Assembly (NCBI RefSeq): GCF_035555955.1
Contig: NZ_DATMGA010000028.1
Location: 106,402 to 170,401 of the forward strand
Direction of reading: 5' to 3'
DNA length: 64,000 nt
Origin: Eoetvoesiella sp.
GTDB lineage: Bacteria; Pseudomonadota; Gammaproteobacteria; Burkholderiales; Burkholderiaceae_B
Position numbers and translations under genes: made by a program. Under the pieces are notes generated by a model that saw nothing but the letters and a program-made list of their open reading frames with translations, did no database searches and was not told the DNA's origin. Each line of letters opens with the position of its first letter. Positions within the stretch are counted from its first letter, which is position 1. Positions 2,152 through 19,409 of this stretch are shown piece after piece.

Positions 2152-3108
2152 TCAAGCTTGCGGCCTGCTCTCTCCGAACGGTATCACCCCGGGGGGGCGG
2201 GCCGATTTGATATGCTGCGTGAGTTCGAGCTGGAATGGCGAGAATTCCTTGTCTTTGCGGTGTACCAGATAAAGCGGAATTGACATTGCGAGGCCGGGGG
2301 TATGCACGGATCGTAGTTCGCCGCGGGTAATGCTGTTGATCACTGACGATTTGAAAAAGAAACAGACGCCCACGTCGCGGCGCACGGCTTCTTTCTGAGC
2401 CTCTGGGTGTCCAAGCGCCATTACGACACGCCGGGAGGTTACGCCGTTGGCCCGCAGTTGCCCTTCTTCGAGTTTTTGCATTACCGAACTGTTGTTCGTG
2501 CTGATGAACGGCAATTGAGATATCTGGTCTCGCTGCACTTCATTTCCCACCCATTGGCTGTCGATTGCGCTGGCCAAAAGCAGGGGCTCGTCCCATAGGG
2601 GATGCAGAACCAGGCCGTCGAGGTTCTGGTCGGGCGAAATAATCACCACGGCAAAGTCGCTTGCGCCCGTTCGCGTTTCTTCGAGCGCGACCTGCGGGTT
2701 TGATATCGACAGTTTCACCATGCCGTCGGGATGGCTGGCCTGGAAGTTGCAGAGGATGCCAGGCAGCTGGTAAGTGCCCACGCTCATGGACGAGGCGATT
2801 ACGACGCCGGGCACGTTGGGGGCTGAACCGCTTAATTCCCGTTCGAGCTCGCGTGTTCGCGTGACCATTTCCCGGGCCCATTTGTGGACCCGGATCCCCG
2901 CCTGAGTCAATACGATGCCGCGTCTTTCGCGGCGTATCAACTTGGTTCCCAGTTTGTCTTCGAGGGTTTGAATATGGGAGGTGATGACGGGCTGGGTGAC
3001 GCAGAGATAGTCCGAAGCGCGCGTAATGCTCTGCAGCTCCGCCACGGCGCAAAAAACCTCGAGTTTTTGAATACTTAGACGGGTATCGAAGCCTCGCATT
3101 GCAAGCAT
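2152..3108 (-). CDS. LysR family transcriptional regulator
   Basis: N-terminal wHTH (LSIQKLEVFCAVAELQSITRASDYLCVTQPVITSHIQTLE) and a ~300 aa length. It is divergent from the 3271-9361 operon. Confidence 0.88.
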   Translation of the reverse strand: MLAMRGFDTRLSIQKLEVFCAVAELQSITRASDYLCVTQPVITSHIQTLEDKLGTKLIRRERRGIVLTQAGIRVHKWAREMVTRTRELERELSGSAPNVPGVVIASSMSVGTYQLPGILCNFQASHPDGMVKLSISNPQVALEETRTGASDFAVVIISPDQNLDGLVLHPLWDEPLLLASAIDSQWVGNEVQRDQISQLPFISTNNSSVMQKLEEGQLRANGVTSRRVVMALGHPEAQKEAVRRDVGVCFFFKSSVINSITRGELRSVHTPGLAMSIPLYLVHRKDKEFSPFQLELTQHIKSARPPGVIPFGESRPQA

Positions 3109-3122
3109 CCTGAAAATATCAT

Positions 3123-3144
3123 GATATAGCCATATGGCTATATC
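3123..3144. promoter_or_regulatory. Perfect 22-bp palindrome GATATAGCCATATGGCTATATC, candidate LysR (T-N11-A type) operator
   Basis: Read directly in the AT-rich divergent intergenic region between the LysR gene and the GMC oxidoreductase gene. It contains TATAGCCATATGGCTATA dyad symmetry. Confidence 0.55.
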
Positions 3145-3270
3145 TTAGTGACTTATTTTCGATTGGACGTATATCTTTAGTCAACATAAAGTGTGCTTGA
3201 CGCAGGAGTATCGGCAAGATCGGCTGAGTTTGTCGGCTTTCCGCGCCGCCACGAAATCACAAGGTTTTGG

Positions 3271-4923
3271 ATGACATTGATGCGCGCCCATGGGAACAGG
3301 ACGGTTGAGTACGATTACATAATCGTTGGTGCGGGGTCGGCCGGCTGCACGCTTGCATATCGACTGGGCATGGATCCGGGTTTGAGGATTCTATTGCTGG
3401 AGGCGGGCGGATCCGATAGTTCGCCAGTCATCAAGATACCCCTGACTTGGGGGCTGATTTTGAAGCACCGGCTTTACGATTGGGGCTACTTTACCGAGCC
3501 CGAGCCGGGGCTGGATGGCCGGCGCATCGAATGCGCGCGCGGGCGTGTTCTGGGCGGCTGCACGTCCATCAATGGCATGGCCTATGCGAGGGGCATGCGC
3601 GAGGACTACGACCAGTGGGCGCAGGAGCTTGGGCTGCACGATTGGTCATACCGCAAAGTTCTGCCTTACTTCAAGCGCAGCGAGTCGTGGGAGGGCGGCG
3701 CGGATGAATTCCGCGGCGATTCGGGGCCTCTTGCCGTGACGCGCTTGAACTACGAAGACCCATTGCTGGATGCATTCATGCAAGCCGTCGAGCTTGCGGG
3801 CTACCCGGACAACGATGACTACAACGGGATCAGCGCGGATGGGTTCGGGCCGATGCAGGCCACTATCCGCCGCGGCCGCCGCTGGAGTGCGGCTTCCGCC
3901 TACTTGCGGCCGGCAGTGGCCCGGAAAAACGTGACGGTATGCTCGGGAGCTCTAGCGCATAAAGTGGTTTTCGAGGGCGGCCGCGCCGTGGGAGTCGAAT
4001 ACTCGAGCGGCGGCGGGACGGAACTGGCGCGTGCCAGCCGGGAGGTCATTGTGTGCGGCGGGGTCATCAATTCGCCGCAGTTATTGATGCTGTCCGGTAT
4101 CGGCAAGGCGGATGCATTGCGCGCCCATGGCATCGAGCCTCTCGTCGATTTGCCGGGTGTGGGCGAGAACCTGCATGACCATATCGTTTGCGACGTCCAG
4201 TGGCGCCGCAGTTCGCCCGGGCCTTTGTACCGCGCGTTGCGGCTGGATCGGATTGCAGTCGATATTCTGCGGACCTGGCTGTTCGGCACCGGGCTGTCCG
4301 GGAAAGTGCCTGCGGCGTCCGTGGGGCTGGTGCGGAGCCGTCCCGGGCTGGAGCTGCCGGATGCCCAGTTGATGCTGGCGGCCGCGCCGATGACGGCAGG
4401 GCCTTATCTTAAGCCGTTTCTCGAGCCTTACGTCGATGCGTTTGCCATCAAGGGCGTATTCCTGGCTCCCGAAAGCCGGGGCACGGTCAGGCTTGCTGGT
4501 TCGGATCCCGCGAAGCCTGCCCGGATTCAGCAGAATTTCCTTTCCACGGAGTCGGATCGTCTTGCTGTTCGCGAGATGGTTCGCACGATGCGCCGCATCG
4601 GCGAGCAGCCGCCGCTTGCTCCGTTCATCGCGGAAGAGCTGGCGCCCGGGCCGTCCGCCGTCGGCGATTCGGACATCGATGCGTTCATTCGAAAAACCGC
4701 CATTACGCTGCATCACCCGGCGGGGACGTGCAAGATGGCCGTGGAGGGCGATCCGATGGGGGTGCTGGATCAGCAATTGCGGGTACGTGGCGTGGACGGG
4801 TTGAGAGTGGTCGACGGATCGGCGATACCGAAAATTGTCAGAGGGCCGATCAATGCTCCCATCATCATGATGGCAGAGAAGACCGCCGACCATATTCTTG
4901 GGCTTGATGCTTTGGTTTCATGA
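3271..4923 (+). CDS. GMC family FAD-dependent oxidoreductase (choline/alcohol dehydrogenase-like)
   Basis: YDYIIVGAGSAGC Rossmann motif near the N-terminus and the GMC signatures GGCTSINGM and HPAGTCKM near the C-terminus. ATG 3271 is preceded by AAGG; the tracked start at 3193 is less likely. Confidence 0.88.
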   Translation: MTLMRAHGNRTVEYDYIIVGAGSAGCTLAYRLGMDPGLRILLLEAGGSDSSPVIKIPLTWGLILKHRLYDWGYFTEPEPGLDGRRIECARGRVLGGCTSINGMAYARGMREDYDQWAQELGLHDWSYRKVLPYFKRSESWEGGADEFRGDSGPLAVTRLNYEDPLLDAFMQAVELAGYPDNDDYNGISADGFGPMQATIRRGRRWSAASAYLRPAVARKNVTVCSGALAHKVVFEGGRAVGVEYSSGGGTELARASREVIVCGGVINSPQLLMLSGIGKADALRAHGIEPLVDLPGVGENLHDHIVCDVQWRRSSPGPLYRALRLDRIAVDILRTWLFGTGLSGKVPAASVGLVRSRPGLELPDAQLMLAAAPMTAGPYLKPFLEPYVDAFAIKGVFLAPESRGTVRLAGSDPAKPARIQQNFLSTESDRLAVREMVRTMRRIGEQPPLAPFIAEELAPGPSAVGDSDIDAFIRKTAITLHHPAGTCKMAVEGDPMGVLDQQLRVRGVDGLRVVDGSAIPKIVRGPINAPIIMMAEKTADHILGLDALVS

Positions 4924-4965
4924 AGGAAAGACGGAATTTCAAATAGAGGACAGGAGATAAACAGC

Positions 4966-7065
4966 ATGAGTTACGTTATTGGCATCGATACTGGCGGAAC
5001 TTTTACGGATGGGTTTGTGGCGGGCGAGAATGGAACGATCGCCGCTGCAAAGAGCCCTTCGACGCCACCTGATTTTTCACGCGGATTTCTTGCCGTCATC
5101 GACGAGCTGGCGAAGGAGCTGGGGATCCAGACTTCAGAGTTGCTGGGCAGGACCCAATACATCATTCACGGGACGACGTCCACGTTGAATGCGGTGGTCA
5201 CGGGCGATGTGGCGAAGGTGGGGTTCCTGACCACCCGCGGCCATGCTGATTCGATCGCGATGATGAATCTGGAGGGACGGTATGTCGGGCTGGATCCAGA
5301 AAAAATCCAGAACATATCCAGGACGAACAAGCCCGAGCCCCTGGTGCCTCGGTCGTTGGTCGAGGAGATTGACGAGCGGGTCGATTACAAAGGCGCCGTG
5401 GTTGTTCCTTTGGATGAAGATGGCGTGCGCAGCGCTGTGGACAGGTTGATGAAGCAGGGTGTGGAAGCCATTGCGGTTTCGCTGTTATGGTCATTTCGCA
5501 ATCCGGCCCATGAAACCCGTATCCGTGAAATCGTCAACGAGATGGCGCCAGGCATGTATGTTGCCGTATCTCATGAAATAAGCCCGCGCATACGCGAATA
5601 TACGCGCAGCTCGACCACCATCGTCAATACGCAGGTCGGCCCCAAGCTGGCCGCCTATCTCGACCCATTGGAAGCCGAGCTCAGGAAACGGGGCCTGGCA
5701 GGGTCGCTTCTCGTGATGCAGGGATCCGGCGGATGCGTCCAAGCCGCTCATGCCCCCAAGCACGCCGTGAGCACCCTGGGGTCGGTACTGACCGGCGGAG
5801 TGGTGGGGTGCCTGCATCTTGCGCAAGCGCTGGGGCATGAAAACATTATTTCGACGGATATGGGGGGGACGACATTCCTGGTCGGGCTGATCCAGGACGG
5901 AAAGCCGATTACGACGACTACGACGGTCTTGAACCAGCATCAGATCAATACGCCGATGGTGGACGTGCAGACGATAGGGGCGGGCGGGGGCGCCATCGCC
6001 TGGATCGATGGCGGCGGGAACCTTCGCGTCGGGCCGCGCAGCGCGGGCGCCAGGCCAGGCCCTGTATGTTATGGAGAAGGGGGCGTCGAGCCGACGGTGA
6101 CGGATGCCGATCTGGTTCTTGGAATCATCAACCCGGATAATTTTCTTGGAGGCCGCAAGAAGCTATCGAGGAAATTGGCGGAAGATGCGATCCGTACCAA
6201 GATCGCGGAGCCCTTGGGCCTTACCGTGGAGGAAGGCGCCGCGGCCATATACACGATACAAAATGCCCAAACTGCTGATCTTGTGCGCAAGGTCGTCGTC
6301 AATAGCGGGCACGATCCCCGCGACTTCGTCATTTATTCGTTTGGCGGGGCCGGCCCTGTGCATGCGGCAAGCTATTCGGCGGATATCGGCTCGCGCGAAG
6401 TCTTGATTCCCCTGGGAACAACCGCGGCCGTGTTTTCCGCATACGGCCTTGCATCGTCGGACATCGTGCTGACCGCCGAAGCTTCGGATCCGTCGAACTG
6501 GCCGGTCGAGCCTGCGACGATCAACGAGCGCTACGAGAAACTGGAGCAGGAACTTCGCAGCCGCATGCAAGAGCAAGGCCTGGACTTCCAGAAAGTCGAC
6601 TATGTTCGCGAGGCCGAGATCCGCTACACGATGCAGATGGCGGAGGTGACCACTCCCGTTCCCTCCGGCGTACTGGATGCGAAGGCCATCGAGGGAGTCG
6701 GCCGAACCTTCGAGGCCTTGTACGAGCGGCTTTATGGCAAAGGCTCGGGGTTCGCCGATGCCGGGCTGCAGGTGATCACCTATCGGGTGCGCGCTGTGGG
6801 CGCGCTACCCATCCGTACAGCGCTTCCCGATTTCGAGAATGCCACGGGCGTTCCCCAAAGCAGCGGCACGCGCCGGGTCTTCCTGGATGTCAGGAAGGGC
6901 TGGCAGGAAACCAGGATCTATGACTATCGCGCCCTGAAGACGGGCGCCCAGGTCGACGGCCCAGCCGTTGTCGAGACGCCCACCACCACCATTGCCGTAC
7001 CGGAAGGGAGCCGTGGCACGGTCGATCGACTGGGCAACTTGGTATTACGGCTTGCCGCCGCTTAA
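4966..7065 (+). CDS. Hydantoinase A/oxoprolinase family protein (HyuA / acetone carboxylase beta-like)
   Basis: 699 aa with N-terminal IGIDTGGTFTD and an internal DMGGTTF ASKHA-fold ATPase motif. A strong SD (AGGAG) precedes the ATG. Confidence 0.88.
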   Translation: MSYVIGIDTGGTFTDGFVAGENGTIAAAKSPSTPPDFSRGFLAVIDELAKELGIQTSELLGRTQYIIHGTTSTLNAVVTGDVAKVGFLTTRGHADSIAMMNLEGRYVGLDPEKIQNISRTNKPEPLVPRSLVEEIDERVDYKGAVVVPLDEDGVRSAVDRLMKQGVEAIAVSLLWSFRNPAHETRIREIVNEMAPGMYVAVSHEISPRIREYTRSSTTIVNTQVGPKLAAYLDPLEAELRKRGLAGSLLVMQGSGGCVQAAHAPKHAVSTLGSVLTGGVVGCLHLAQALGHENIISTDMGGTTFLVGLIQDGKPITTTTTVLNQHQINTPMVDVQTIGAGGGAIAWIDGGGNLRVGPRSAGARPGPVCYGEGGVEPTVTDADLVLGIINPDNFLGGRKKLSRKLAEDAIRTKIAEPLGLTVEEGAAAIYTIQNAQTADLVRKVVVNSGHDPRDFVIYSFGGAGPVHAASYSADIGSREVLIPLGTTAAVFSAYGLASSDIVLTAEASDPSNWPVEPATINERYEKLEQELRSRMQEQGLDFQKVDYVREAEIRYTMQMAEVTTPVPSGVLDAKAIEGVGRTFEALYERLYGKGSGFADAGLQVITYRVRAVGALPIRTALPDFENATGVPQSSGTRRVFLDVRKGWQETRIYDYRALKTGAQVDGPAVVETPTTTIAVPEGSRGTVDRLGNLVLRLAAA

Positions 7066-7086
7066 TTCAATTATCAAGGAGACATC

Positions 7087-9060
7087 ATGCCGTTAATCAA
7101 TATAGCGGGGTCCGAGCGATTCGCCTACCAGCTGAAACCCTCCGCGCAAACCAGGGAATTGGCGCGTGGGCTCACGCTGCATTCAGTCAGCGACGACGAT
7201 GTGGCGGGGGTAGATCCGCTGACGTACGAGGTGATTCGACACCGGCTGGCGTCCATCGCCGGGGAAATGGGCGATGCGCTCAAGCGCATGTCCGGCTCGG
7301 TCGTGGTCACGGATTGCAACGATTTTGGAGCCACTATTCTGGACGAATGCGGCGACTCGGTGATTGTTGGGCTTTACAACACCCAGCTGGCCGCATCGGT
7401 CGATATGGCGGTCAAGTGGACGCTGGAGAACCGGGGAGTGAATCCGGGCATCCGGCCCGGCGATATGTTTTTCTGCAACGATCCATGGATAGGCGGCGGC
7501 CTGCATCAGAACGACGCCACGATCATGGCGCCGCTTTTTCACGAAGGCGAGCTATTCGGCTGGACGGCGGCAGTTTGCCACCAAGTGGATCTGGGTGGCG
7601 TGTCTCCCGGGAGCTGGTCGGTCGAGGGCCGGGATGTATTTTGGGAATCGACGCCCGTTCCGCCCGTAAAGATCGTGGAAGAGGGGGAAATCCGTAGTGA
7701 TATCGAAGATATGTATTTGCGGCGCTCGAGAGTGCCGCGCCTGATCGCGCTCGATCTGCGCGCGAAGATCGGCGCCAACAATATTGCGCAGGAACGCTTG
7801 ACGCAGTTGATTGCCAAGTACAGCGCCAAGACCGTCAAAGCGGTGATGAAGCGCATGATGAACGATGCCGAGAGCCGTCTCAGGGCGAAGTTGCTGGAGC
7901 TTCCCGATGGCGAGTGGTCGGGCGTGGCGCATCAGGATTCGTTCCGCAGCGGAGACCGCAACGTATACAAGATCACCCTGAAGATGACGAAAAAGGGAGA
8001 CCGCCTGACGTTCGACTTCACCGGCACCGACAAAGAGGTCGAGGGATTCGCCAATTGCACTCTCGCCGGGTTGAGGGGAGGGATCATGCCGATAGTGCTG
8101 ACCATGCTTTGCGGCGACATTCCGTGGGCTCCGGGCGGGCTTTACCGGTGTTTCGACATCATCAGCGAGCCCGGCACCATCAATAATTGCAATTTTCCCG
8201 CGGGCATTGGCAAGGCTTCTGTAGCATCGGCCTGGGCCACGCAGAATGTCGTTTCCGAAACGGTCGGAACCATGCTGTCCATTCATCCCGAGCATCGCAA
8301 GTCGCTGATGTGCGTGTGCTGCGGAACCTGGGACTTGGCATTGCTGGCCGGCCTCGATCAAAGGGGCAACCCGTTCGTGACGATGATTTGCGACTCGATG
8401 GCGGGCGGCATGGGTGCGCGGGTGGATCAGGACGGCGTCGATACGGGCGGGCTCAATTGTATTCCGATGGGCCGGGTCGCCGACGTTGAAATCAACGAGT
8501 TCAGTTTCCCGATGCTTTATCTTTGGCGCAGGGAGGAAATGGACTCAGGCGGAGCGGGCCGGTTCAGGGGCGGCGCGGGTGGATCCAGTTGCTTCATTCC
8601 GTACGACTCTCCCATAGGCGGCGTGCATCTGGTCGTTTCGGCGACGGGCAAGGCCTTGCCGCAGGCAACCGGGCTGAGCGGGGGCTATCCCGCGGGCACG
8701 CAATACGATGTGCTGTTGCGAGACACGAATGCCAGGCAGATGCTGGCGGCTGGCCGGATCCCGGGCGCTCTGGACGATTTGCAGGGAACTGCCGAGGTGT
8801 TGCAGCAGCATCTGGAAACCCATCTGAACGATGGCGATGTGTACTTCACCCATTGGCAAGGCGGCGGTGGCTATGGCGATCCGCTATTGCGAAACCCGAT
8901 TCTGGTTGCGCGCGACGTCGTTAGGCAGAAAGTGTCCAGGCGCGCCGCCATCGAAGTCTATGGCGTTGCCTTGGCTGAGAACGGAACCGTGGATGTTCCC
9001 GCAACGGAAGCGGCCAGGAAAGCATTGCGTGAAAAGCGCGCCGCTGAAGCGTTTCATTGA
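7087..9060 (+). CDS. Hydantoinase B/oxoprolinase family protein (HyuB / acetone carboxylase alpha-like)
   Basis: 657 aa with DPLTYEVIRHRL, the typical HyuB N-terminus. SD AAGGAG is present, and the gene starts 21 nt after the HyuA-like gene. Confidence 0.88.
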   Translation: MPLINIAGSERFAYQLKPSAQTRELARGLTLHSVSDDDVAGVDPLTYEVIRHRLASIAGEMGDALKRMSGSVVVTDCNDFGATILDECGDSVIVGLYNTQLAASVDMAVKWTLENRGVNPGIRPGDMFFCNDPWIGGGLHQNDATIMAPLFHEGELFGWTAAVCHQVDLGGVSPGSWSVEGRDVFWESTPVPPVKIVEEGEIRSDIEDMYLRRSRVPRLIALDLRAKIGANNIAQERLTQLIAKYSAKTVKAVMKRMMNDAESRLRAKLLELPDGEWSGVAHQDSFRSGDRNVYKITLKMTKKGDRLTFDFTGTDKEVEGFANCTLAGLRGGIMPIVLTMLCGDIPWAPGGLYRCFDIISEPGTINNCNFPAGIGKASVASAWATQNVVSETVGTMLSIHPEHRKSLMCVCCGTWDLALLAGLDQRGNPFVTMICDSMAGGMGARVDQDGVDTGGLNCIPMGRVADVEINEFSFPMLYLWRREEMDSGGAGRFRGGAGGSSCFIPYDSPIGGVHLVVSATGKALPQATGLSGGYPAGTQYDVLLRDTNARQMLAAGRIPGALDDLQGTAEVLQQHLETHLNDGDVYFTHWQGGGGYGDPLLRNPILVARDVVRQKVSRRAAIEVYGVALAENGTVDVPATEAARKALREKRAAEAFH

Positions 9061-9073
9061 CCAGGAGATAATC

Positions 9074-9361
9074 GTGAATTTCGACGACAACATCAAGCTG
9101 GCCGACGATGGTGTGTCCACCGTTTGCAGCCATTGTTCGGAAACGCTTGGCGATGCGCATGGCGACCCATTGGCGCATGCGCTCAGGCTGGAGCGGAAAT
9201 CCTCTGAACTAGGGCCCGGGATCCGGGCCGACCCTGGCTTGTTCACCGATAGGGAAATCGTTCTCAGGCAGCGATTCTGCCCAAAGTGCCTGGCGGTGCT
9301 TGCCACCGAAGTGGTTCCCCAGGACGAGGGCAAGTTGCGCAGCTGGAAGGTCTTTGGCTGA
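9074..9361 (+). CDS. Small Zn-ribbon protein, acetone carboxylase gamma subunit-like
   Basis: GTG at 9074 is preceded by AGGAGA and lies 13 nt after the HyuB stop. The 95-aa product has CSHC and CPKC pairs about 50 residues apart. The longer tracked ORF (8831) overlaps HyuB and is rejected. Confidence 0.65.
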   Translation: MNFDDNIKLADDGVSTVCSHCSETLGDAHGDPLAHALRLERKSSELGPGIRADPGLFTDREIVLRQRFCPKCLAVLATEVVPQDEGKLRSWKVFG

Positions 9362-9371
9362 AGGGCGCTGG

Positions 9372-10085
9372 CTAGGGATTATGCAACCGCCGCTCCAGCA
9401 GCGCCAGGTCTTCGCGCAGCTGGCGCAGGGATTCGTCCACGCTGTTCTCGCGCGAGCGGCGTTCTTCGCCGCGTACCACCGATTGCAGGGCGAAAGTGGC
9501 GAGCATTTGCGCCACGTCTTCCAGCGGCACCTTGCCGCTGGCGCTGAACCACCACGCCGACCAGTTGCACATGCCCAGAATGGCGAAGGCCGCGATTTTC
9601 GGGTCGACGATGCGGAACTGTCCGGCCTGCATGCCGGCTTCGATTACCGCCTGGAAGCGGCTTAGCACCAGCCGGCGCGATGCCTCGGCCTCTTTGCGCA
9701 GGGCGGGAGAGAGGTTTTCTTCGTTGCGCTCGACGACCCGGAACTGCAGCGGATGCCCCAGTATGAGCCGGGCATGCTTCAGCACCAGCTGGCGCAGTGC
9801 CTCCATGGGGTCTGAATTGCTGTCGTCGACCTGGGCCGCCTGCTTGCCGGCCATGCCGGTTATTTCCGTCGTCAGCTCGCGCAGTATGGCTTCTTTATTG
9901 CGGAAGTAATAGTAGATGGCGGTGCGCGTAACGCCCATGGCCTCGGCGATATCGCCCATGCTGGTGCCCTGGAATCCGCGCTGTATGAACAAGGTGGAGG
10001 CGGCTTCCAGTATGGACTCCTGCAGCAGCTCGCGGCGCGAGGACTTGGGGGCGGGTGCGGATTTCTTGGGCGAAGTCTTGGGCAC
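9372..10085 (-). CDS. TetR/AcrR family transcriptional regulator
   Basis: N-terminal HTH TSMGDIAEAMGVTRTAIYYYFRNKEAIL. It is divergent from the 10333 operon. Confidence 0.9.
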   Translation of the reverse strand: MPKTSPKKSAPAPKSSRRELLQESILEAASTLFIQRGFQGTSMGDIAEAMGVTRTAIYYYFRNKEAILRELTTEITGMAGKQAAQVDDSNSDPMEALRQLVLKHARLILGHPLQFRVVERNEENLSPALRKEAEASRRLVLSRFQAVIEAGMQAGQFRIVDPKIAAFAILGMCNWSAWWFSASGKVPLEDVAQMLATFALQSVVRGEERRSRENSVDESLRQLREDLALLERRLHNP

Positions 10086-10216
10086 GATTGTTGTTCAGCT
10101 TTCTTGTCGGTTGCGAAGGGGAGCGGTGCGTGGGGGCTGCGCGGCAACCGCGGTTTTCCGGCCAATGATAAGGCAAGCCGGCGGTGGGCGCAGGCCCGAC
10201 TGCACTATGCGCCATT

Positions 10217-10234
10217 TTTGACATGAGCGTCAAA
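10217..10234. promoter_or_regulatory. Inverted repeat TTTGACATGAGCGTCAAA, candidate TetR operator
   Basis: Lies in the TetR/hydrolase divergent intergenic region. A related TGTCAAAAATGTC is present downstream. Confidence 0.4.
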
Positions 10235-10261
10235 TCCCCGCGTCTCGGTGTAAACACCTAG

Positions 10262-10277
10262 TTGTCTTTATCGACAA
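10262..10277. promoter_or_regulatory. Inverted repeat TTGTCTTTATCGACAA, second candidate operator
   Basis: Lies in the same intergenic region, just upstream of TAGAAT/TATAAAA -10-like elements and a strong SD (AAGGAGG). Confidence 0.35.
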
Positions 10278-10332
10278 TAATTTCACACTTGTGTCAAAAA
10301 TGTCTTAGAATATAAAAAAGGAGGCAGAAATC

Positions 10333-11619
10333 ATGAGTGAATCGCCGACCAGCAAAGACGCCGCCACCGGTGCGGCAAAGCCGCAGGAAGCCACGGCCGG
10401 GTTCCTGAACACCGACTGGAATCCGCGCGGGCTGCCGGAAGGCGCCGCCACCAGCAATGTGGTGCTGCGCACGCAAGACGGTGCGGCCACGGGTGGTGCG
10501 CTGTACCGTCCGGCCACCGCCACCGATACGGTGGTGTGCATCATGCATCCCCGGGAATTCATGGCGTGCCATTACCTGGTGCCGGACATCGTGGAAGCGG
10601 GCTATGCGGCCTGGTCGCAGTGGCCGCGCTCGGTCGGCAACGACCTTCGCCTGGAACACGAGTTCGCGCTTTACGACGTGGCGGCCGGCATGGAGTTCCT
10701 GCGCAAGGCCGGCTTCAAGCGCATTGTCCTGCTGGGAAATTCGGGGGGCAGCGGGCTGTACAGCCTGTATGCGCAGCAGGCCTCGCTGGCGCCCGCCGAC
10801 CGCATCAAGAAGACTCCGGGCGGGCGGGCCACCAAGCTGGACCAACTGGCCATGGTTGAGCCCGACGGCATGGTTTTCCTGGCGCCGCATCCCGGCCAGG
10901 GCGCGCTGCTTATGCAATGCATCGATCCTTCGGTCATCGACGAGTCTGACCCGCTTTCCGTGGATGCCTCGCTGGACCCCTTCGACGAGGCCAATGGCTT
11001 TGGCGACGCCAAAACCGGGGCGCGCTACGGCGCCGAGTTTGTGCGGCGCTATCGCCAGGGGCAGCACGAGCGCGTGCAGCGCCTGGACGCCATGGCGCAT
11101 GCCCTGATCGAACGGCGCATGCAGGCGCGCGGCCGCGCCAAAGAGGGCGGATCGGCCGCCGACCGCCGGCTTGGCGCCCATACCCCCATCATGCAGGTAT
11201 GGCGCACCAACGCCGATCTGCGCTGCTACGACCTGTCGCTGGACCCTTCGGACCGCAAGTACGGCACCTTGTGGGGCGGCGACCCGTTCGCTTCCAACTA
11301 CGGTTCGGTGGGTTTTGCCCGGCTGTGCTCGCCGGAAAGCTGGCTATCGACCTGGTCGGGAATCTCTTCCAACGCCTTGCTGGCCAAGTCGGCGCCAGCC
11401 ATCCGCCAGCCTACGCTGCTGGTGGAATACACCGGCGACCAGGCCTGCTTCCCGTCCATCATTCGCGACATATTCTCGGCCATCGGTGCTTCCGAAAAGC
11501 GGCACGAACGCGTAAGGGGCGATCACCACGGCCGCGCCCTGGCCGCGGGCGAAGAGCCGGGGCGCTACGTGGCGGGCCGTATCGTGCAGGAATGGCTGCG
11601 GCAGCATTTTCCCGGGTAG
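10333..11619 (+). CDS. Alpha/beta-fold hydrolase with a large lid insertion
   Basis: Nucleophile elbow GNSGGSG and candidate Asp (YTGDQ) and His (GDHHG) near the C-terminus. The family was recognised only at fold level. Confidence 0.6.
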   Translation: MSESPTSKDAATGAAKPQEATAGFLNTDWNPRGLPEGAATSNVVLRTQDGAATGGALYRPATATDTVVCIMHPREFMACHYLVPDIVEAGYAAWSQWPRSVGNDLRLEHEFALYDVAAGMEFLRKAGFKRIVLLGNSGGSGLYSLYAQQASLAPADRIKKTPGGRATKLDQLAMVEPDGMVFLAPHPGQGALLMQCIDPSVIDESDPLSVDASLDPFDEANGFGDAKTGARYGAEFVRRYRQGQHERVQRLDAMAHALIERRMQARGRAKEGGSAADRRLGAHTPIMQVWRTNADLRCYDLSLDPSDRKYGTLWGGDPFASNYGSVGFARLCSPESWLSTWSGISSNALLAKSAPAIRQPTLLVEYTGDQACFPSIIRDIFSAIGASEKRHERVRGDHHGRALAAGEEPGRYVAGRIVQEWLRQHFPG

Positions 11620-11678
11620 CCGATCCGGGCGCCCGGCGTGCCCGGGCTTTCCATTTCCATGTTTTCAAGGAACGAATC

Positions 11679-12548
11679 ATGTCATCTGCTTCGACGAGCA
11701 GCCTGGTGTTGAAAGGGGTGGACCACACGGCCCGCCCCACCTGGAGGCTGCGCGAAACCATTACGTTTTATCGCGACGTGCTTGGCCTGCCGCTGATCCA
11801 CACGATTTCCGCGCGAGGCTGGGGGCCGGCCACGCACCCAGACTTTTTGCATTTCTTTTTCGACAGCGGCAAGGGCAGCACCATTGCGTTTTTCTACTAC
11901 CTGGGCTCGTCGGAACCCGCAGGCTTGGGCCGCGAGAAGCACGCCAAGCCCTGGCCGGAGGATCATGTCTTCGACGCCACCCATACCGCCTGGCAGGTGG
12001 ATACCGAAGAAGAGCTCAAGGCCTGGAAGACGCGCCTGGAGGAAAAGGGGTTGGAGGTTTCCGTCGAAACCCGCCACGAAATCATCGAATCCATTTATTT
12101 TCGCGATCCCAACGGCTATTTCGTGGAGATCACGCGCAAGCTGCGTCCGCTGCAGGAGCGCGATTCGACCGACGCGGAGCTGACGCTGCAGGCGGCCATG
12201 GAGCTGGAGGACGAGGCCGCCCGCGGGGTGCAGGACATTGGCGCCATCGACGACGTCTGGAACCGCAAGTCCAGGCTGCTTTTGTCCGACGCAAGCCCGG
12301 GTGCCGCGCGGGTGCTGGTTTTGAAAGTGCCCGAGTTCGCCGCGTTGATCGAGGCGGCCCGGCGGTCGCCGCAATGCAAGGTGGACGACAGCCTGGAGGA
12401 CTATGCGGTGATCGAGTCGCAGTCGCCCATGGAATTCAGCCGCAAAGAGCTGGGCGTGAAGCCCGCCGTCTGGTATGGGCTGTTCACGGGCGGCCTGCAG
12501 GGACGCATCACGGTGTTCGACCGCGACCGCGTTCGCATAGAGCCTTAG
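11679..12548 (+). CDS. VOC (glyoxalase/bleomycin resistance/extradiol dioxygenase) family protein with an uncharacterised C-terminal domain
   Basis: ATG 11679. The N-terminal ~150 aa have VOC features (GVDHTA, THTAW, YFVEI as putative H/H/E ligands). The last ~130 aa are unassigned. The tracked 11199 start runs through the hydrolase gene in another frame. Confidence 0.65.
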   Translation: MSSASTSSLVLKGVDHTARPTWRLRETITFYRDVLGLPLIHTISARGWGPATHPDFLHFFFDSGKGSTIAFFYYLGSSEPAGLGREKHAKPWPEDHVFDATHTAWQVDTEEELKAWKTRLEEKGLEVSVETRHEIIESIYFRDPNGYFVEITRKLRPLQERDSTDAELTLQAAMELEDEAARGVQDIGAIDDVWNRKSRLLLSDASPGAARVLVLKVPEFAALIEAARRSPQCKVDDSLEDYAVIESQSPMEFSRKELGVKPAVWYGLFTGGLQGRITVFDRDRVRIEP

Positions 12549-12581
12549 GCGAGACGACGCGGCGGCGTAAAGGAGAGACAA

Positions 12582-14267
12582 GTGAAAGACATACTGAACC
12601 CCCTGGAAGGGGTTGTGTACCAGACCGAGGAAAAGGCGCGGGCCTATCTGGGCAGCGGAGCCTGGGTCGACGACACGGTGGGTGGGGCCTTGCGCAAGAG
12701 CGCCACGCGCCACCCGGACCGGCCGGCCTACATTACCGACGAGGGCACGCTTACCTATCGGCAATTGAACGAACAAAGCGATTGCCTGGCGGCGGCGCTG
12801 CTGGACCTTGGTTTGAAGCCGGGCGACCGTGCCATCTTCCAGATGGGCAGCACGCTGCAAACCGCCTTGGCCGTGCTGGCCTGCTACAAGGCGGGCGTGG
12901 TGCCGGTGTGCGCGGTGCCGCAGTACCGCGAAATGGAAATCGGCAAGCTCATGCAGATGTCGCAGGCCACGGCGTATTTCGTGCAGGCCGACTTCAGCAG
13001 CTTCGACCTGGTGGAGTTTGCGCAGAAGATGATGGACAAGAACGAGCATGTTCGTCACCTGGTGGTGGCGCGCGGCACGCCGTCGATGCCGGGCCATGGC
13101 TTGCAGGCCCTGATTGCACGGCATACGCCGGAAAGCGGGCGGGAGCGGCTGAAAGACGTGCCCGTTGGACCGCGCGACGTGCTGGCCTTCCAGCTTTCGG
13201 GCGGCTCCACCGGCCTGCCGAAAATCATCCCGCGTTTCCATGGCGAATACCTGGGCCATAGCGCCGGCTGGTCCAGGCGGTATGCCATCGATGAATCGTC
13301 CCGCGTCATCTGGTCGCTGCCGTTGATGCACAATGCCGGGCAGATCTACGCCATGATGCCCATGGTGCTGCTGGGCGTTACCACGGTGCTGATGCCCAAG
13401 GTGGATATCCAGCGCATGCTGGAGCTGATTCAAGAGCATCGCGTTACGCACGGCCTGTCGATAGGCCCCATAGCCCCGCAGCTGATTGCGTTCCAAGGCA
13501 TCCGCAAGTATGACCTGTCGTCGCTGAAGCTGTTCGCCACCATGAGCCGGTCCGACACCCTGGAGGAGCATCTGGGCGTGCCCTGCTCCAATCTGTACGG
13601 CATTACGGAAGGCCTGTTGCTGGGCTCGCAGGCCGGCGAGCCGGCGTTCGTGCGGCACCATACCCAGGGAACCAGCGGCTGCCCGGACGACGAGATCACC
13701 ATACGCGAGCCGGGCACGGACCGCATTCTTCCTGCCGGTTCGACGGGCGAGATGTGCTTCCGGGGGCCTTCCAGTCTGCTGGGCTATTACGGCGACCCCG
13801 CGGCCACGCGCGAGGCGCTGACCGACGACGGCTTCGTGCGCAGTGGCGACCTGGTCACCGAGCACTGCCTGGAAGGCCGTTCCTGGTACGCCTTCGAGGG
13901 CCGGTTGCGCGACAACATCAATCGCGGCGGAGAAAAAATCGGCTGCGAGGAAGTGGAGGGCTGCATCAGCCATCACCCCGCCATCGCCGACACCAAGCTG
14001 GTGGCCATGCCCGACCCTGTGTATGGCGAGCGCGCATGCGCCTACATCATCGTGCGGCCGGGGCATACGGCGCCCACCATTCCCGAGATGATCGCCTTCC
14101 TGACGGAAATGGGCCTGGCCAAGTTCAAGTGCCCCGAGCGCATCGAGGTGGTGGATGAGTTTCCCACGACCCGGGTGGGCAAGGTGGACAAGGTGGCCCT
14201 GCGCAAGATGGTGGCCGAGCGGCTGGCCGAAGAAGGCGAGCAGGCCGGGCAAGGGGTCAAGCGATGA
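12582..14267 (+). CDS. Aryl-acid adenylating enzyme / aryl-CoA ligase (EntE/DhbE/salicylate-AMP ligase-like ANL family)
   Basis: GTG start after AAAGGAGAG. The motif FQLSGGSTGLPKIIPRFH is typical of EntE/DhbE-type aryl-AMP ligases. C-terminal GEKIGCEEVE and GKVDK are present. Confidence 0.8.
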   Translation: MKDILNPLEGVVYQTEEKARAYLGSGAWVDDTVGGALRKSATRHPDRPAYITDEGTLTYRQLNEQSDCLAAALLDLGLKPGDRAIFQMGSTLQTALAVLACYKAGVVPVCAVPQYREMEIGKLMQMSQATAYFVQADFSSFDLVEFAQKMMDKNEHVRHLVVARGTPSMPGHGLQALIARHTPESGRERLKDVPVGPRDVLAFQLSGGSTGLPKIIPRFHGEYLGHSAGWSRRYAIDESSRVIWSLPLMHNAGQIYAMMPMVLLGVTTVLMPKVDIQRMLELIQEHRVTHGLSIGPIAPQLIAFQGIRKYDLSSLKLFATMSRSDTLEEHLGVPCSNLYGITEGLLLGSQAGEPAFVRHHTQGTSGCPDDEITIREPGTDRILPAGSTGEMCFRGPSSLLGYYGDPAATREALTDDGFVRSGDLVTEHCLEGRSWYAFEGRLRDNINRGGEKIGCEEVEGCISHHPAIADTKLVAMPDPVYGERACAYIIVRPGHTAPTIPEMIAFLTEMGLAKFKCPERIEVVDEFPTTRVGKVDKVALRKMVAERLAEEGEQAGQGVKR

Positions 14268-14746
14268 TGGTCAGCACGGAGCATGTAATCGGCACGCAGC
14301 CCTTCACCATACGCCGGACCGTCAAGTGGGGCGATTGCGACCCCGCTGGCGTGGTCTACACCGTGGTGTTCGGCGAGTACGTGATCTCGGCGGCCGAGCT
14401 GTTCTATCGGCATCTGTTCGGCGAAGGGCCGCAGCATGCCAAGGACAGGCACGGCTTTGGAACGCCGACGCGGGGCCTGACCTTCGACTTCCAGCGTTCG
14501 CTGCGCCCGGACGAGCAGTTCGACGTAGAGGTCACGGTGGGCGAGATCCGCTCGCGCACCTACACCCTGGTCATGCATGGGCGCACTTTGGCCGGCGAAA
14601 CGGTATTCGTCGCGCGGCTTACACCAATTTGCGTGGCGCGCGGAGAGCGCCGCGCCATTGATATGCCGCTCGTCCTGCGCGAGGCGCTGCAGGCATACCA
14701 GGCCGGTCAGGCGCTGGACCAAGAGCATCACACGAAGCAAAGCTAG
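14264..14746 (+). CDS. Hotdog-fold acyl-CoA thioesterase (4HBT/YbgC type)
   Basis: The N-terminus VKWGDCDPAGVVY carries the 4HBT catalytic Asp context. It is about 160 aa. Its start overlaps the ligase stop (ATGA), implying translational coupling. Confidence 0.75.
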   Translation: MMVSTEHVIGTQPFTIRRTVKWGDCDPAGVVYTVVFGEYVISAAELFYRHLFGEGPQHAKDRHGFGTPTRGLTFDFQRSLRPDEQFDVEVTVGEIRSRTYTLVMHGRTLAGETVFVARLTPICVARGERRAIDMPLVLREALQAYQAGQALDQEHHTKQS

Positions 14747-14803
14747 AAAGCATCATCCATAAACATTATCAAAAAGCATTACTCAAAAAACAGGAGACTA
14801 ATC

Positions 14804-15979
14804 ATGTCGATGAAATTGAAAATCGCATTGGGGCTGGCGTCCTTGCTGTGCGCCGCCCAGGCCGGCGCGGTGCAACCCGTCAAGCTGGGGTTCATTGCCG
14901 CGCAAAGCGGTCCGCTGGGCGTACTGGGGGCCGAGCAGAAGCGCGGCCTGGATCTGGCGCTGGAAGCGTTGGGCGGCAAGCTGGGCGGCCACCCTGTGGA
15001 ATTGTTCAGCGCCGATTCGCGCGGGGTGCCCGGCACGGCCGTGCAGGAGGCGTCCAAGCTGATAGAGAAGGATGAGGTGGACGTCATTACCGGCGCTACG
15101 GCGTCGAACGAGATCCTGGCCATGGTCAAGCCCATTTCCAGGGCCGGACTGACCCTGGTGGGGTCGAACGGCGGGCCGTCGCCGCTGGCCGGCAAAGAAT
15201 GCAATCCGGGCTATTACAGCGTGGCTTTCCAGAACGACCAATGGAGCGAGGGCATGGGCACCTATATGTCGGCCCACGGCGTCAAGCGCGCCTACTTCAT
15301 CGGCATGGACTACCAGGCGGGCTGGGACCACGTGGGCGGCGCGCAGCGCAGCTTCAAGGGTGAAACCGTTGCCAAGGTCTTCACGCCTCAGGCGCAGCTG
15401 GACTTCTCGGCCGAACTGGCGCAAATACGGGCCGCGAAGCCGGACGGCGTGTTCGCGTTCTACCCGGGCGGCGCGGCCATTGCGTTCGTGAAGCAGTACG
15501 CCCAGGCCGGGCTTTCCAAGACGATTCCGCTTTACTCGAATGCCGGCCTAGTCGATACGCTGTTCCTTCCCTCTTTCGGCGACAACGCAGTGGGCGTGGT
15601 GATCTCCAGCCACTACAGCGCCGACCTGGACAATGCGGCGAACAAGAAGTTCGTGGCCGCCTTCCGGGCTAAATACAAGCGCGATCCCTCCAGCTATGCC
15701 GCCTCGCAATACGATGCCGTAATGCTTATCGACCATGCTTTGCGCGACATCGGCGGCGACAAGATCGACAAGGCCAAGCTGCGCGCAGCCCTCGAGACCA
15801 CGAAATTCGACAGCGTGCGCGGGGCGTTCAAGTTCAACGTGAACCACATGCCCATCCAGAACATCTATGTGCAGCGCGTCGAGCGCGACAAGAACGGTGA
15901 GCTGGCCCTGCGCCTGCTGGGCGTGGCTCAGGAAAACGCCGCCGACCGCTATGCGCAGGACTGCGCCATGAAGAAGTAG
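14804..15979 (+). CDS. ABC transporter substrate-binding protein (LivJ/K-like, cluster B)
   Basis: Signal peptide MSMKLKIALGLASLLCAAQAGA followed by VKLGFIAAQSGP, typical of Leu/Ile/Val-binding family SBPs. Confidence 0.85.
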   Translation: MSMKLKIALGLASLLCAAQAGAVQPVKLGFIAAQSGPLGVLGAEQKRGLDLALEALGGKLGGHPVELFSADSRGVPGTAVQEASKLIEKDEVDVITGATASNEILAMVKPISRAGLTLVGSNGGPSPLAGKECNPGYYSVAFQNDQWSEGMGTYMSAHGVKRAYFIGMDYQAGWDHVGGAQRSFKGETVAKVFTPQAQLDFSAELAQIRAAKPDGVFAFYPGGAAIAFVKQYAQAGLSKTIPLYSNAGLVDTLFLPSFGDNAVGVVISSHYSADLDNAANKKFVAAFRAKYKRDPSSYAASQYDAVMLIDHALRDIGGDKIDKAKLRAALETTKFDSVRGAFKFNVNHMPIQNIYVQRVERDKNGELALRLLGVAQENAADRYAQDCAMKK

Positions 15980-15995
15980 CAGCAGGTTCAAGCTC

Positions 15996-16895
15996 ATGAC
16001 ACTGTCGAACTTATTCGAGCAGGTCTTCAACGGCCTGCAATACGGGATGCTGCTTTTCCTGATGGCCATGGGCGTGACCCTGATCTTCGGGGTCATGCGG
16101 CTGGTCAACCTTGCCCATGGTTCCATGTTCATGGTGGGCGGCTACCTGGCCAGCTCGGGACTGCAGGCTTCGGGATCCGTGTGGGTGGCCATAGCGTGCG
16201 CGCTGGTGGGTTCGGCGGTGCTGGGCGCCGTGCTTGAAATCCTGGTGATACGGCCGCTGTACCAGCGCGGCCACCTGGATCAACTGCTGGCCACGTTCGG
16301 CGTCACGCTTACGCTCAACGAACTGGTGGTGGTCATATGGGGGCGCGAACCTGTATTCATGCCGGTTCCCGCCTTGCTGACCGGCCAGGTATCGCTGCTG
16401 GGCGTGCCTTATCCGGTTTATCGGCTGGTCATTACCGGGGTGGCCGTGCTTACGGGGCTGATCCTGATGTGGCTGGTTTCGCGCACGCGCTTCGGCATGC
16501 TGGTGCGGGCCGGCGCCGACAACCGCACGATGGTTGCCGGGCTGGGGGTGAACGTGGTGCTGCTGTATACGCTGGTGTTCAGCCTGGCCGCGGTGCTGGC
16601 GGGTCTGGCGGGAATGATGTCGGGGCCGCTTATTTCCATGCAGCCGGCCGTCGGCGATCCCATTCTCATTCTCACCTTGTCGGTGGTCTGCATTGGCGGC
16701 TTCGGTTCGGTGCGCGGCGCGCTGGTGGCCTCGCTGCTGATCGGCCTGCTCGACACCTTCGGGCGGATATTCGCGCCGCAATGGTTCGGCGCAATGGGCA
16801 ATACCCTGGCCAATATGCTGGTGTACATCATCATGGCGCTGGTGCTGTTCTTCAAGCCCGCCGGCCTGTTCACGCTGACGGGGAAAAAAGCATGA
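15996..16895 (+). CDS. Branched-chain amino acid-type ABC transporter permease (LivH-like)
   Basis: 299 aa and polytopic hydrophobic. LVNLAHGSMFMVGGY is a LivH family motif. Confidence 0.85.
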   Translation: MTLSNLFEQVFNGLQYGMLLFLMAMGVTLIFGVMRLVNLAHGSMFMVGGYLASSGLQASGSVWVAIACALVGSAVLGAVLEILVIRPLYQRGHLDQLLATFGVTLTLNELVVVIWGREPVFMPVPALLTGQVSLLGVPYPVYRLVITGVAVLTGLILMWLVSRTRFGMLVRAGADNRTMVAGLGVNVVLLYTLVFSLAAVLAGLAGMMSGPLISMQPAVGDPILILTLSVVCIGGFGSVRGALVASLLIGLLDTFGRIFAPQWFGAMGNTLANMLVYIIMALVLFFKPAGLFTLTGKKA

Positions 16896-17899: not shown

Positions 17900-18651
17900 A
17901 TACGCCCTTGCTTGAAATTCGCGGCCTCAAGAAGAAATACGGCTCGTTGACCGTTACCGACAACGTGTCGCTTACCGTGAACGCCAACGAGCTGCATGCG
18001 CTTATCGGCCCCAACGGGGCGGGAAAGACCACCTTGGTCAGCCAGATATCGGGTCAGCTGATGCCCGATTCCGGTTCCATCCTGCTGGAAAGCGAAGACA
18101 TTGCCAGGCTGCCCACACCGCAGCGAACGCGGCGTGGCGTGGGCCGCTCGTTCCAGATAACCAGTATTTTTTCCAGCCTGACGGCCCAGGAAAATGTGGC
18201 GCTGGCGGTGCGGGCCAGCCTGGGGCAGAGCCGGGGTTTCTGGAAGCCGGCTTCGGCCTACGGCCAGGCGCGTCAACAGGCGCTGGACTTGCTGGAACAG
18301 GTGGGGCTGGGCGACTGCGGCGATGCGCCGTGCAATGAACTGGCCCACGGGCAGCTGCGCCAGCTGGAACTGGCGCTGGCCTTGGCCGCCAGGCCAAGAA
18401 TACTCGTCCTGGACGAGCCCATGGCGGGCCTGGGGCCGGTGGAAGCCCGCCATATGGTAGAGCTGCTTGCCTCGCTGAAGAATGAATGCGCCATTTTGCT
18501 GATCGAGCACGATATGGACGCCGTGTTCGCCCTGGCCGACCGGATTTCCGTTCTGGTGGCCGGCCGCGTGGTGCTTAGCGGTTCGGCGGACGACGTGCGC
18601 AACAGCGACGAAGTGCGCCAAGCGTATCTGGGAGACGACGATGAAGCATGA
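17896..18651 (+). CDS. ABC transporter ATP-binding protein (LivG-like)
   Basis: ATG 17896 overlaps the LivM stop. Walker A GPNGAGKTT and Walker B LVLDEPMAGL are present. Confidence 0.88.
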   Translation: MNTPLLEIRGLKKKYGSLTVTDNVSLTVNANELHALIGPNGAGKTTLVSQISGQLMPDSGSILLESEDIARLPTPQRTRRGVGRSFQITSIFSSLTAQENVALAVRASLGQSRGFWKPASAYGQARQQALDLLEQVGLGDCGDAPCNELAHGQLRQLELALALAARPRILVLDEPMAGLGPVEARHMVELLASLKNECAILLIEHDMDAVFALADRISVLVAGRVVLSGSADDVRNSDEVRQAYLGDDDEA

Positions 18652-19387: not shown

Positions 19388-19409
19388 ATTTATTGGAAAA
19401 GGTGTGCTC

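Follow-up and report, generated by a model that had tools for sequence, protein, structure and literature searches.

We analysed a 64,000-nucleotide stretch of Eoetvoesiella sp. DNA (Alcaligenaceae), hereafter called the window, in which the open reading frames (ORFs) were mapped and translated. It contains a set of four genes encoding a flavoprotein of the GMC family and three proteins, alpha (HyuA-like), beta (HyuB-like) and gamma, that are related to the subunits of acetone carboxylase and the hydantoinases and are together referred to as the trio. The genes and features of the locus are as follows.

2152-3108, minus strand: LysR-type regulator gene, divergent from the operon (Pfam HTH_1, 2.6e-18; LysR_substrate, 3.4e-26)
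3123-3144, no strand assigned: perfect palindrome of 22 bp, GATATAGCCATATGGCTATATC, read from the sequence, with the core ATAG-N8-CTAT
3156-3185, plus strand: conserved promoter-region element, TTTTCGATTGGACG...GTCAAC, present in four Burkholderiales loci at equal distance from the palindrome
3271-4923, plus strand: GMC oxidoreductase, 550 aa (Pfam GMC_oxred_N, 2.3e-58; GMC_oxred_C, 8.9e-36), with the motifs GAGSAGC and HPAGTCKM
4966-7065, plus strand: alpha, HyuA-like, 699 aa (Pfam Hydant_A_N, Hydantoinase_A and Hydant_A_C)
7087-9060, plus strand: beta, HyuB-like, 657 aa (Pfam Hydantoinase_B, 4.3e-120)
9074-9361, plus strand: gamma, 95 aa, with a GTG start and four cysteines in CxHC and CPxC motifs

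An initial annotation, made from the sequence alone, had described four co-directional, closely spaced genes for a GMC protein, a 699-aa HyuA, a 657-aa HyuB and a 95-aa product with two CxxC motifs, beside a divergent LysR gene with a perfect 22-bp palindrome; all of these were present, the LysR assignment being confirmed by Pfam and the palindrome by reading the sequence. The gaps between GMC and alpha, alpha and beta, and beta and gamma are 42, 21 and 13 nt, and the intergenic region between lysR and the GMC gene is 162 bp. The Shine-Dalgarno sites, which had all been called good, are so for alpha, beta and gamma (AGGAGA or AAGGAG), whereas that of the GMC gene is a weaker AAGG. Downstream, the operon is bounded by a convergent TetR gene (9372-10085), and the locus is best explained as a LysR-activated operon of the order GMC-alpha-beta-gamma. 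The upstream border is formed by a lipoyl synthase gene (1014-2117; Radical_SAM and LIAS_N), and a related contig has lipB-like and DUF493 genes still further upstream of this gene, so that a catabolic operon here abuts housekeeping genes, with no recognisable mobile element. The beta protein is 100% identical to that of a metagenome-assembled genome (MAG) of Eoetvoesiella sp., and metagenome contigs at 99% identity show the identical gene layout.

Alpha and beta fell far short of every NCBIfam equivalog cut-off. Specifically, alpha scored 551 bits with the CapA model (cut-off 1000) and 423 bits with ApcC (1500), and beta scored 223 bits with ApcD (1500) and 216 bits with CapB (1000). Against solved structures, alpha was closest to caprolactamase (6yra, 416 bits), followed by acetophenone carboxylase (Apc, 405), N-methylhydantoinase (381) and acetone carboxylase (Acx, 338), while the beta scores were 190 bits for Apc, 179 for CapB, then 155, and 148 for Acx. 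The identity of alpha to CapA, Apc-alpha, N-methylhydantoinase and Acx-beta was 32-36%, and that of clade members to the window alpha was at least about 57%. In a rough neighbour-joining tree without bootstrap, built with four references whose alpha sequences were reconstructed from pairwise alignments, the clade stood on its own branch, outside Acx and Apc-alpha and outside CapA and N-methylhydantoinase. The trio is thus assigned, on these scores, identities and branching, to a distinct and widely distributed clade of the acetone-carboxylase/hydantoinase family, and the HyuA/HyuB pair does not fall within the characterised hydantoinase, oxoprolinase, caprolactamase, Acx or Apc clades. A distinct subfamily is marked by the subunit sizes as well, as had been suggested earlier from their difference from AcxABC. 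In a plasmid collection no member of the clade was found, the best match being a haloarchaeal sequence of 45% identity.

The catalytic equipment of both large subunits is intact. Alpha carries the ATP motifs of the ASKHA type, DTGGTFTD, DMGGT and GARPGP, which are conserved across the clade. Around the second of these, the window alpha and about 90 clade orthologs read DMGGTTFL (DxGGTTFL), whereas DxGGTSxD is present in the four aligned solved references (CapA, Apc-alpha, N-methylhydantoinase and the Acx-beta of 5m45) and in paralogs from outside the clade, and this Asp-to-Leu change, invariant within the clade, defines it. The replaced Asp corresponds to D302 of CapA, equivalent to D315 of Apc-alpha, and is conserved in the family; its position lines the presumed substrate-phosphorylation site and the channel from alpha to beta, and is occupied by Lys in the bicarbonate-activating Apc-alpha' (PMC8453981). 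Inspection of the metal-ligand positions of beta, as the initial annotation had proposed, showed that all four residues are retained: D79, H140, D143 and H165 align with D41, H99, D102 and H124 of CapB (numbering from PMC8453981) and are invariant in 17 orthologs.

The assignment of the 95-aa protein required an indirect route. It scored below the gathering threshold of Pfam Acetone_carb_G (12 bits versus 21; E = 0.25), nothing significant was returned by direct NCBIfam or PDB sequence searches, and a direct search yielded only six close homologs. When a profile of the close homologs was run against 1.84 billion representative proteins, however, 158 gamma relatives (cluster representatives) were recovered. 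Among the 148 that were scanned, 73 matched Acetone_carb_G (PF08882; best 3.4e-14) and 15 carried a Hydantoinase_B domain. The full-length beta-gamma fusions, which occur in other organisms, are 759-801 aa long with the gamma domain at the C-terminus (P0069, P0085, P0096, P0109, P0126 and P0149 among them), and three HyuB orthologs of 763-775 aa (P0189, P0228 and P0242) may be further cases, as their length suggests. These fusions tie gamma physically to beta.

At least 90% of the gamma relatives keep C18, C21, C69 and C72, and these cysteines align residue for residue with C22, C25, C75 and C78 of Apc-gamma, which form a zinc-finger site in the small subunit of Apc (Weidenweber et al., PMC5214803). 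The AlphaFold2 model of gamma was of high confidence (pLDDT 92, pTM 0.81), and its top five fold matches in the PDB were the Acx gamma chains 5m45_C, 5svb_C, 5svb_F and 5svc_C and the Apc gamma chain 5l9w_C, with query-normalised TM-scores of 0.65-0.74, the next match having an E-value of 0.6. Because the direct Pfam match fails, the identity of gamma is based on the transitive profile matches, the conserved cysteines and the fold search, which together establish the 95-aa protein as a true gamma subunit, a short Cys4 zinc-ribbon member of the acetone-carboxylase gamma superfamily. The earlier view of this ORF as gamma-like is therefore upheld by its relatives, cysteines and fold and by its conservation in all 78 species loci analysed (see below), and not by a direct Acetone_carb_G match. 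That a small zinc-binding gamma is typical of the carboxylase branch, as the initial annotation had stated, is in agreement with the literature, which describes a gamma for both Acx and Apc but for none of the known hydrolases of the family (Weidenweber et al., PMC5214803). A single gamma relative also bears a BKACE (beta-keto-acid cleavage enzyme) domain (E = 2.3e-36); this may be a fusion introduced by gene calling, and it would be in keeping with a beta-keto acid as the product.

A scan of one genome per species gave 464 candidate loci, the best 78 of which were analysed by homology searches on six-frame stop-to-stop ORFs and by de novo clustering of the neighbours, followed by Pfam and NCBIfam annotation; all neighbourhood counts refer to these 78. 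More than 120 cluster representatives of beta were found at 69% identity or above, in Burkholderiales, Hyphomicrobiales, Acetobacteraceae and many Actinobacteria. Across the 78 loci, from Actinobacteria and Proteobacteria, the identity of beta was 56-98%, and about 70% was reached between phyla. HyuA lies directly upstream of beta in 75 loci, and a gamma-like ORF lies directly downstream of it in all 78. With the order alpha-beta-gamma kept to this extent, the arrangement is not due to chance.

The most frequent neighbours were an aldehyde dehydrogenase (ALDH, 59 loci) and a short-chain dehydrogenase/reductase (SDR, 50), and at least one of SDR, GMC and zinc-dependent alcohol dehydrogenase (Zn-ADH) was present in 67. 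They were followed by a class-II-aldolase-fold protein (AldoII, 37 loci), an IclR regulator (32), a 3-hydroxybenzoate 6-monooxygenase-like protein (3HB6H, 17), a fumarylacetoacetate-hydrolase family protein (FAH, 15), a gentisate 1,2-dioxygenase-like protein (GDO, 14), a Rieske alpha subunit (13), a mycothiol-dependent maleylpyruvate isomerase (MDMPI, 11) and a P450 (5). At least one gentisate-pathway gene was found in 24 loci. For example, Nocardia and Nonomuraea have a tight co-directional block of the order GDO-FAH-MDMPI-3HB6H-ALDH-alpha-beta-gamma-SDR-AldoII, and in Labrys an AldoII-3HB6H pair is divergent from ALDH-alpha-beta-gamma, the monooxygenase adjoining the trio passing the NCBIfam 3HB6H cut-off (581 versus 459). 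In Rhodococcus (L085/L021 2148-4919), a P450-ferredoxin-ferredoxin reductase set is divergent from an IclR-ALDH-alpha-beta-gamma-SDR-AldoII operon and shares the IclR regulator with it, and in Geodermatophilaceae and Pseudonocardia the place of the P450 set is taken by an HcaE-like Rieske dioxygenase alpha subunit (340 bits) and a ferredoxin reductase. In addition, several trio operons contain MFS or TRAP transporters of the aromatic-acid type. Among solved structures, the AldoII partner is closest to pyruvic oxime dioxygenase, the vitamin-B6 pathway decarboxylase Mlr6791, fuculose-phosphate aldolase and NovR, so that it could act as an aldolase, as a decarboxylase or as an Fe(II) oxygenase. 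The initial annotation had read the locus without this 3-hydroxybenzoate/gentisate context, which emerges from the neighbourhoods.

Two of the neighbourhoods hold further genes beside the trio. In Pseudorhodoferax (L090 14842-19145), a second HyuA/HyuB pair, belonging to another clade and having the canonical motif DMGGTSFDV, lies 2.5 kb downstream of the trio with no gamma called after it, so that members of the family with and without gamma can evidently be neighbours. Downstream of the trio in Labrys (L087 12391-21989) are genes for a dimethylglycine/sarcosine dehydrogenase-like protein, an MTTB methyltransferase, a creatinase/M24 protein and a ProV-like ABC component; these methylated-amine/osmolyte genes lie beyond a divergent LysR and are probably an unrelated neighbouring operon.

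The GMC protein scored 604 bits with the NCBIfam choline dehydrogenase subfamily model (cut-off 605) and 539 bits with the betA equivalog TIGR01810 (cut-off 732), and its closest PDB chain was the choline dehydrogenase 9lq0 (428 bits). By these scores it is classed as a choline-dehydrogenase-like alcohol dehydrogenase/oxidase and not as BetA. Characterised GMC relatives of the choline-dehydrogenase type oxidise primary alcohols. With ALDH as the usual partner of the trio and the GMC protein closest to choline dehydrogenase, the chemistry points to a primary alcohol being converted to an aldehyde and an acid, rather than to the oxidation of a secondary alcohol to a ketone that had been proposed initially. 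A glycine-betaine or creatinine context, which the BetA-like and BADH-like best matches and the Labrys neighbours might have indicated, was rejected, the matches being below their cut-offs and the gentisate linkage far more consistent.

Co-conservation of GMC with HyuA and HyuB, which the initial annotation had implied, was not borne out. The GMC gene directly adjoins the trio in the window's own species, but lies within 10 kb of it in only 8 of the 78 loci. It is absent from E. caeni DSM 25520, the type strain, and from a related contig, both of which have lysR immediately divergent from hyuA. Related GMC genes flank the trio in Ottowia, Pseudorhodoferax and Labrys (74.7%, 69.8% and about 51% identity to the window GMC, respectively), the order in Pseudorhodoferax being TRAP transporter-ALDH-GMC-alpha-beta-gamma, and elsewhere the corresponding place is occupied by an SDR or a Zn-ADH, so that an alcohol dehydrogenase of one family or another recurs next to the trio. 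GMC appears to be a lineage-specific substitute for these enzymes.

The control region bears on the same question. In E. caeni, Ottowia and a Burkholderiaceae MAG, an orthologous LysR gene lies in divergent orientation to hyuA. The palindrome core ATAG-N8-CTAT is kept in E. caeni (L055 and L005) and appears as CATAG-N8-CTATG in Ottowia (L008) and the Burkholderiaceae locus (L009), and downstream of the palindrome the element TTTT(C/G)(G/A)ATT(G/A)GACG, followed by GTCAAC, is found in four Burkholderiales loci. The core is likely to be the LysR recognition site, and the downstream element is probably the LysR activation site together with the -35 region. Their conservation upstream of the first gene supports a LysR-controlled promoter that would drive the whole operon. 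Since both are kept whether the first gene is GMC or hyuA (Eoetvoesiella, Ottowia and the Burkholderiaceae MAG), their conservation also indicates that the GMC gene was gained or lost between the promoter and hyuA.

We compared the trio with the named systems of the family. With AcxABC of Xanthobacter autotrophicus (PDB 5M45, 5SVB and 5SVC) it shares three subunits in the gene order alpha-type, beta-type, gamma, a HyuA-type subunit with ASKHA ATP motifs, a HyuB-type subunit with an Asp/His/Asp/His metal site, and the gamma fold. It differs from Acx in that the HyuA-type subunits are only 32% identical, the HyuB-type match (148 bits) consists of two partial stretches, beta, at 657 aa, falls about 120 aa short of the 776 aa in X. 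autotrophicus, gamma is 95 rather than about 165 aa, without the N-terminal part and below the Acetone_carb_G threshold, alpha reads DxGGTTFL where Acx has DxGGTSFD, and the genomic context is aromatic instead of acetone or isopropanol. Acx-beta orthologues are about 720 aa long, and Acx gamma has about 50 extra N-terminal residues relative to Apc-gamma (PMC5214803). The Apc of Aromatoleum aromaticum (PDB 5L9W), an enzyme with an aromatic ketone substrate and an SDR alcohol dehydrogenase upstream in its pathway, provides the best beta homolog (190 bits end to end; 684 aa, a similar length), an alpha of 36% identity, an ERiDsxG-type motif that here reads DERVDYKG, and a small gamma with the four aligned cysteines. 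In contrast to Apc, whose genes apcABCDE encode alpha', gamma, alpha, beta and epsilon in an order different from that of the trio, the operon has a single HyuA-type gene with no paralog in the 64 kb and neither alpha' nor epsilon; the conserved module also has no benzoylacetate-CoA ligase, and its context, with flavin monooxygenase and dioxygenase genes, is O2-dependent.

The ATP-dependent lactamases such as CapAB and the hydantoinases (PDB 6YRA and 7HK5) provide the top alpha homolog, four identical beta ligands and a similar alpha length, but they consist of alpha and beta only, whereas gamma is universal in the trio; in addition, the trio beta is about 75 aa longer than CapB, and Asp302 of CapA is Leu here. 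By the criteria used for the family (PMC5214803), the trio has an Acx-type gene organisation with subunit lengths closer to those of Apc and the hydrolases, on a branch of its own. The acetophenone-carboxylase cluster of Rhodococcus ruber Chol-4, considered as a possible match, was rejected, its apc1-4 subunits and Fis-family regulator being unlike the trio. In Sphingobium sp. SYK-6, a route through the GMC protein HpvZ and aldehyde dehydrogenases and another through acetovanillone carboxylation converge on an aroylacetate, and the carboxylase involved is biotin-dependent and combined with a phosphorylation step. The trio loci resemble that system in the logic of GMC, ALDH and ketone carboxylase, and differ from it in the type of carboxylase, the ring substitution and the downstream pathway.

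We tentatively take an ATP-dependent carboxylase to be the most likely function of the trio. This reading is favoured because gamma is so far found only in carboxylases, is universally retained or fused here, and is accompanied by no conserved amine-handling partner. By analogy with acetone and acetophenone carboxylases, alpha, being of the ASKHA type, would use ATP to O-phosphorylate the enol form of the substrate carbonyl, or a phenolic hydroxyl; beta would receive the activated intermediate at its Asp/His/Asp/His metal site and join it through a C-C bond to bicarbonate-derived CO2; and gamma would act as a structural zinc-ribbon clamp on beta. Judging from the conserved partners and the embedding in gentisate operons, the probable substrate is a carbonyl compound of the aromatic (hydroxyphenyl) type, a phenolic compound or an acid. 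It would be taken up by MFS or TRAP transporters and enter a peripheral pathway made up of the trio, an alcohol dehydrogenase (GMC here and SDR or Zn-ADH elsewhere), usually ALDH and often AldoII, which would yield 3-hydroxybenzoate or gentisate and feed gentisate ring cleavage. The gene content, homology, gamma fold, conserved ligands and conserved neighbourhoods are observed; we infer the carboxylation, the aromatic nature of the substrate and the order of the steps.

Several observations weigh against a carboxylase of aromatic catabolism. The best NCBIfam model for alpha is CapA (551 bits), and in the tree the clade lies outside the Acx and Apc pair as well as outside the hydrolases. Gamma in Apc lies far away from the active sites and probably serves as a structural element (PMC5214803), so that the presence of a gamma subunit is no proof of carboxylation. 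The 64-kb window itself contains no aldehyde dehydrogenase, aldolase-fold or gentisate genes, and in some genomes (Mesorhizobium and Burkholderia diffusa) the trio occurs without any of these partners. No complete and chemically convincing route that leads from a specific substrate to 3-hydroxybenzoate and uses all of the conserved partners could be derived; the routes sketched, namely ring carboxylation of m-cresol as a handle, conversion of 3-hydroxyacetophenone to an aroylacetate with a retro-aldol step, phthalide opening and carboxyl migration, were rejected as unsupported or as chemically or genetically incomplete. In the literature searched we found no biochemical or genetic work on any member of the clade, no description of the clade and no link between a hydantoinase-type gene and a gentisate cluster, nor one with 3-hydroxybenzoate, ALDH or a class II aldolase, and a paper in a subscription journal may exist.

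Some of the same observations would suit an ATP-dependent hydrolase in which gamma is merely retained and which opens a lactam, a cyclic imide or a similar ring, possibly an aromatic heterocycle of the oxindole or pyridone type. Alpha scores highest against CapA, with the NCBIfam model as with 6yra (416 bits), and N-methylhydantoinase is close (381 bits); the lengths of 699 and 657 aa are nearer to those of the hydrolases and Apc than to those of Acx (PMC5214803); the remoteness of gamma from the proposed active sites of Apc fits mere retention; and the family includes a lactamase of indoleacetate catabolism (PMC8453981, PMC5214803). A hydrolase that contains gamma is a serious rival, because gamma is probably structural, but we consider it less likely than a carboxylase, as all known hydrolases of the family are without gamma (PMC5214803) whereas all 78 loci keep it, the recurrent neighbours include no aminotransferase, amine oxidase or amidase to process an amino acid product, and the family-conserved Asp (D302 of CapA, PMC8453981) is Leu throughout the clade. 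A model close to that of the initial annotation would be a different carboxylase, compact and of the acetone type, acting on an aliphatic ketone such as acetone or butanone that GMC (or an SDR or ADH) would form from a small secondary alcohol. Such a model is improbable in view of the ALDH, the most constant partner, which would have no role in an isopropanol/acetone route, and of the gentisate operons in which the trio is embedded, together with IclR regulators and transporters of the aromatic-acid type. In addition, the Acx subunits are the least identical among the references (32% for the alpha type; 148 bits for beta), the Asp-to-Leu change departs from the aligned Acx reference 5m45_B, and GMC is closest to BetA, whose characterised relatives oxidise primary alcohols. 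What speaks for it is the gene order, which is that of acxABC (PMC5214803), the alcohol dehydrogenase gene in 67 of the 78 loci, the genomes with few partners, which would fit a small self-contained substrate, and the gamma relative fused to a beta-keto-acid cleavage enzyme domain.

The trio might also carry out another kind of ATP-dependent activation, such as temporary phosphorylation of a phenolic hydroxyl, with oxygenase, SDR and ALDH oxidising the side chain before the group is removed. The CreHI and HpeHI systems of Corynebacterium and Rhodococcus use a phosphorylated phenolic hydroxyl as a temporary handle in this way. The divergent P450/ferredoxin/ferredoxin-reductase set under the shared IclR in Rhodococcus, the constancy of SDR and ALDH as partners, and the Rieske oxygenases (alpha subunit, 13 loci) or P450s (5 loci) near the trio in Geodermatophilaceae, Pseudonocardia and other lineages are consistent with this, and a hydrophobic Leu in place of the putative substrate-side Asp might suit a phenol, which is already enolic. 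However, only 5 of the 78 loci have a P450 and 13 a Rieske alpha subunit, no recognisable phosphatase is among the conserved partners, and the strongly conserved metal site of beta, as well as gamma, would be left without a role, making this a quite improbable explanation.

Next to the operon, the window contains a separate TetR-controlled cluster (9372-20540). Its products are a 428-aa protein that matches neither Pfam nor NCBIfam models (2505 homologs, named 'alpha/beta hydrolase' by NCBI), a 289-aa glyoxalase-fold protein, an aryl-CoA ligase resembling 2,3-dihydroxybenzoate-AMP ligase, a 4HBT_2 thioesterase, a five-gene Liv-type ABC transporter and a 412-aa monooxygenase that matches the N-terminal half of salicylyl-CoA 5-hydroxylase (391 bits), and the cluster may represent a CoA-dependent route from a hydroxybenzoate to gentisate. 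The same TetR-type module is found near the trio in Rhodococcus. In Pandoraea and Cupriavidus it occurs with a Pfam Amdase (arylmalonate-decarboxylase-family) gene and an MFS transporter and with no trio within the 10-kb flanks, and functional coupling of trio and cluster as a necessary link was rejected on account of this independence. An ORF of 856 aa (11682-14252, minus strand), antisense to the glyoxalase-fold and CoA-ligase genes, was dismissed as a shadow ORF typical of high-GC DNA, since the plus-strand genes have strong Pfam matches and are called on related contigs.

The carboxylase reading has consequences for the family. To our knowledge, the characterised ketone carboxylases that depend on ATP and not on biotin number only two, the acetone and the acetophenone enzymes. 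It is possible, if on balance rather doubtful, that the clade represents a previously unrecognised ATP-dependent carboxylase of aromatic compounds, acting on a hydroxyphenyl ketone or directly on a phenol, and that many Actinobacteria and Proteobacteria use it for the central step of a new peripheral pathway that feeds O2-dependent gentisate degradation. If so, ketone-carboxylase chemistry would gain a third substrate class, served by an enzyme with a minimal gamma and a remodelled kinase site (Asp to Leu). Gamma subunits are also far commoner than Pfam detects, which changes how members of the family should be sorted into carboxylase-like and hydrolase-like enzymes. A third alpha-beta-gamma lineage that is so well conserved and widespread (up to 464 candidate loci among species-representative genomes) and that is built into gentisate operons points to a reaction of aromatic catabolism that has yet to be assigned. 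Identification of its substrate would fill an annotation gap for genes now labelled 'hydantoinase/oxoprolinase family' or 'N-methylhydantoinase', and the trio could supply a new C-C bond-forming, CO2-fixing biocatalyst.

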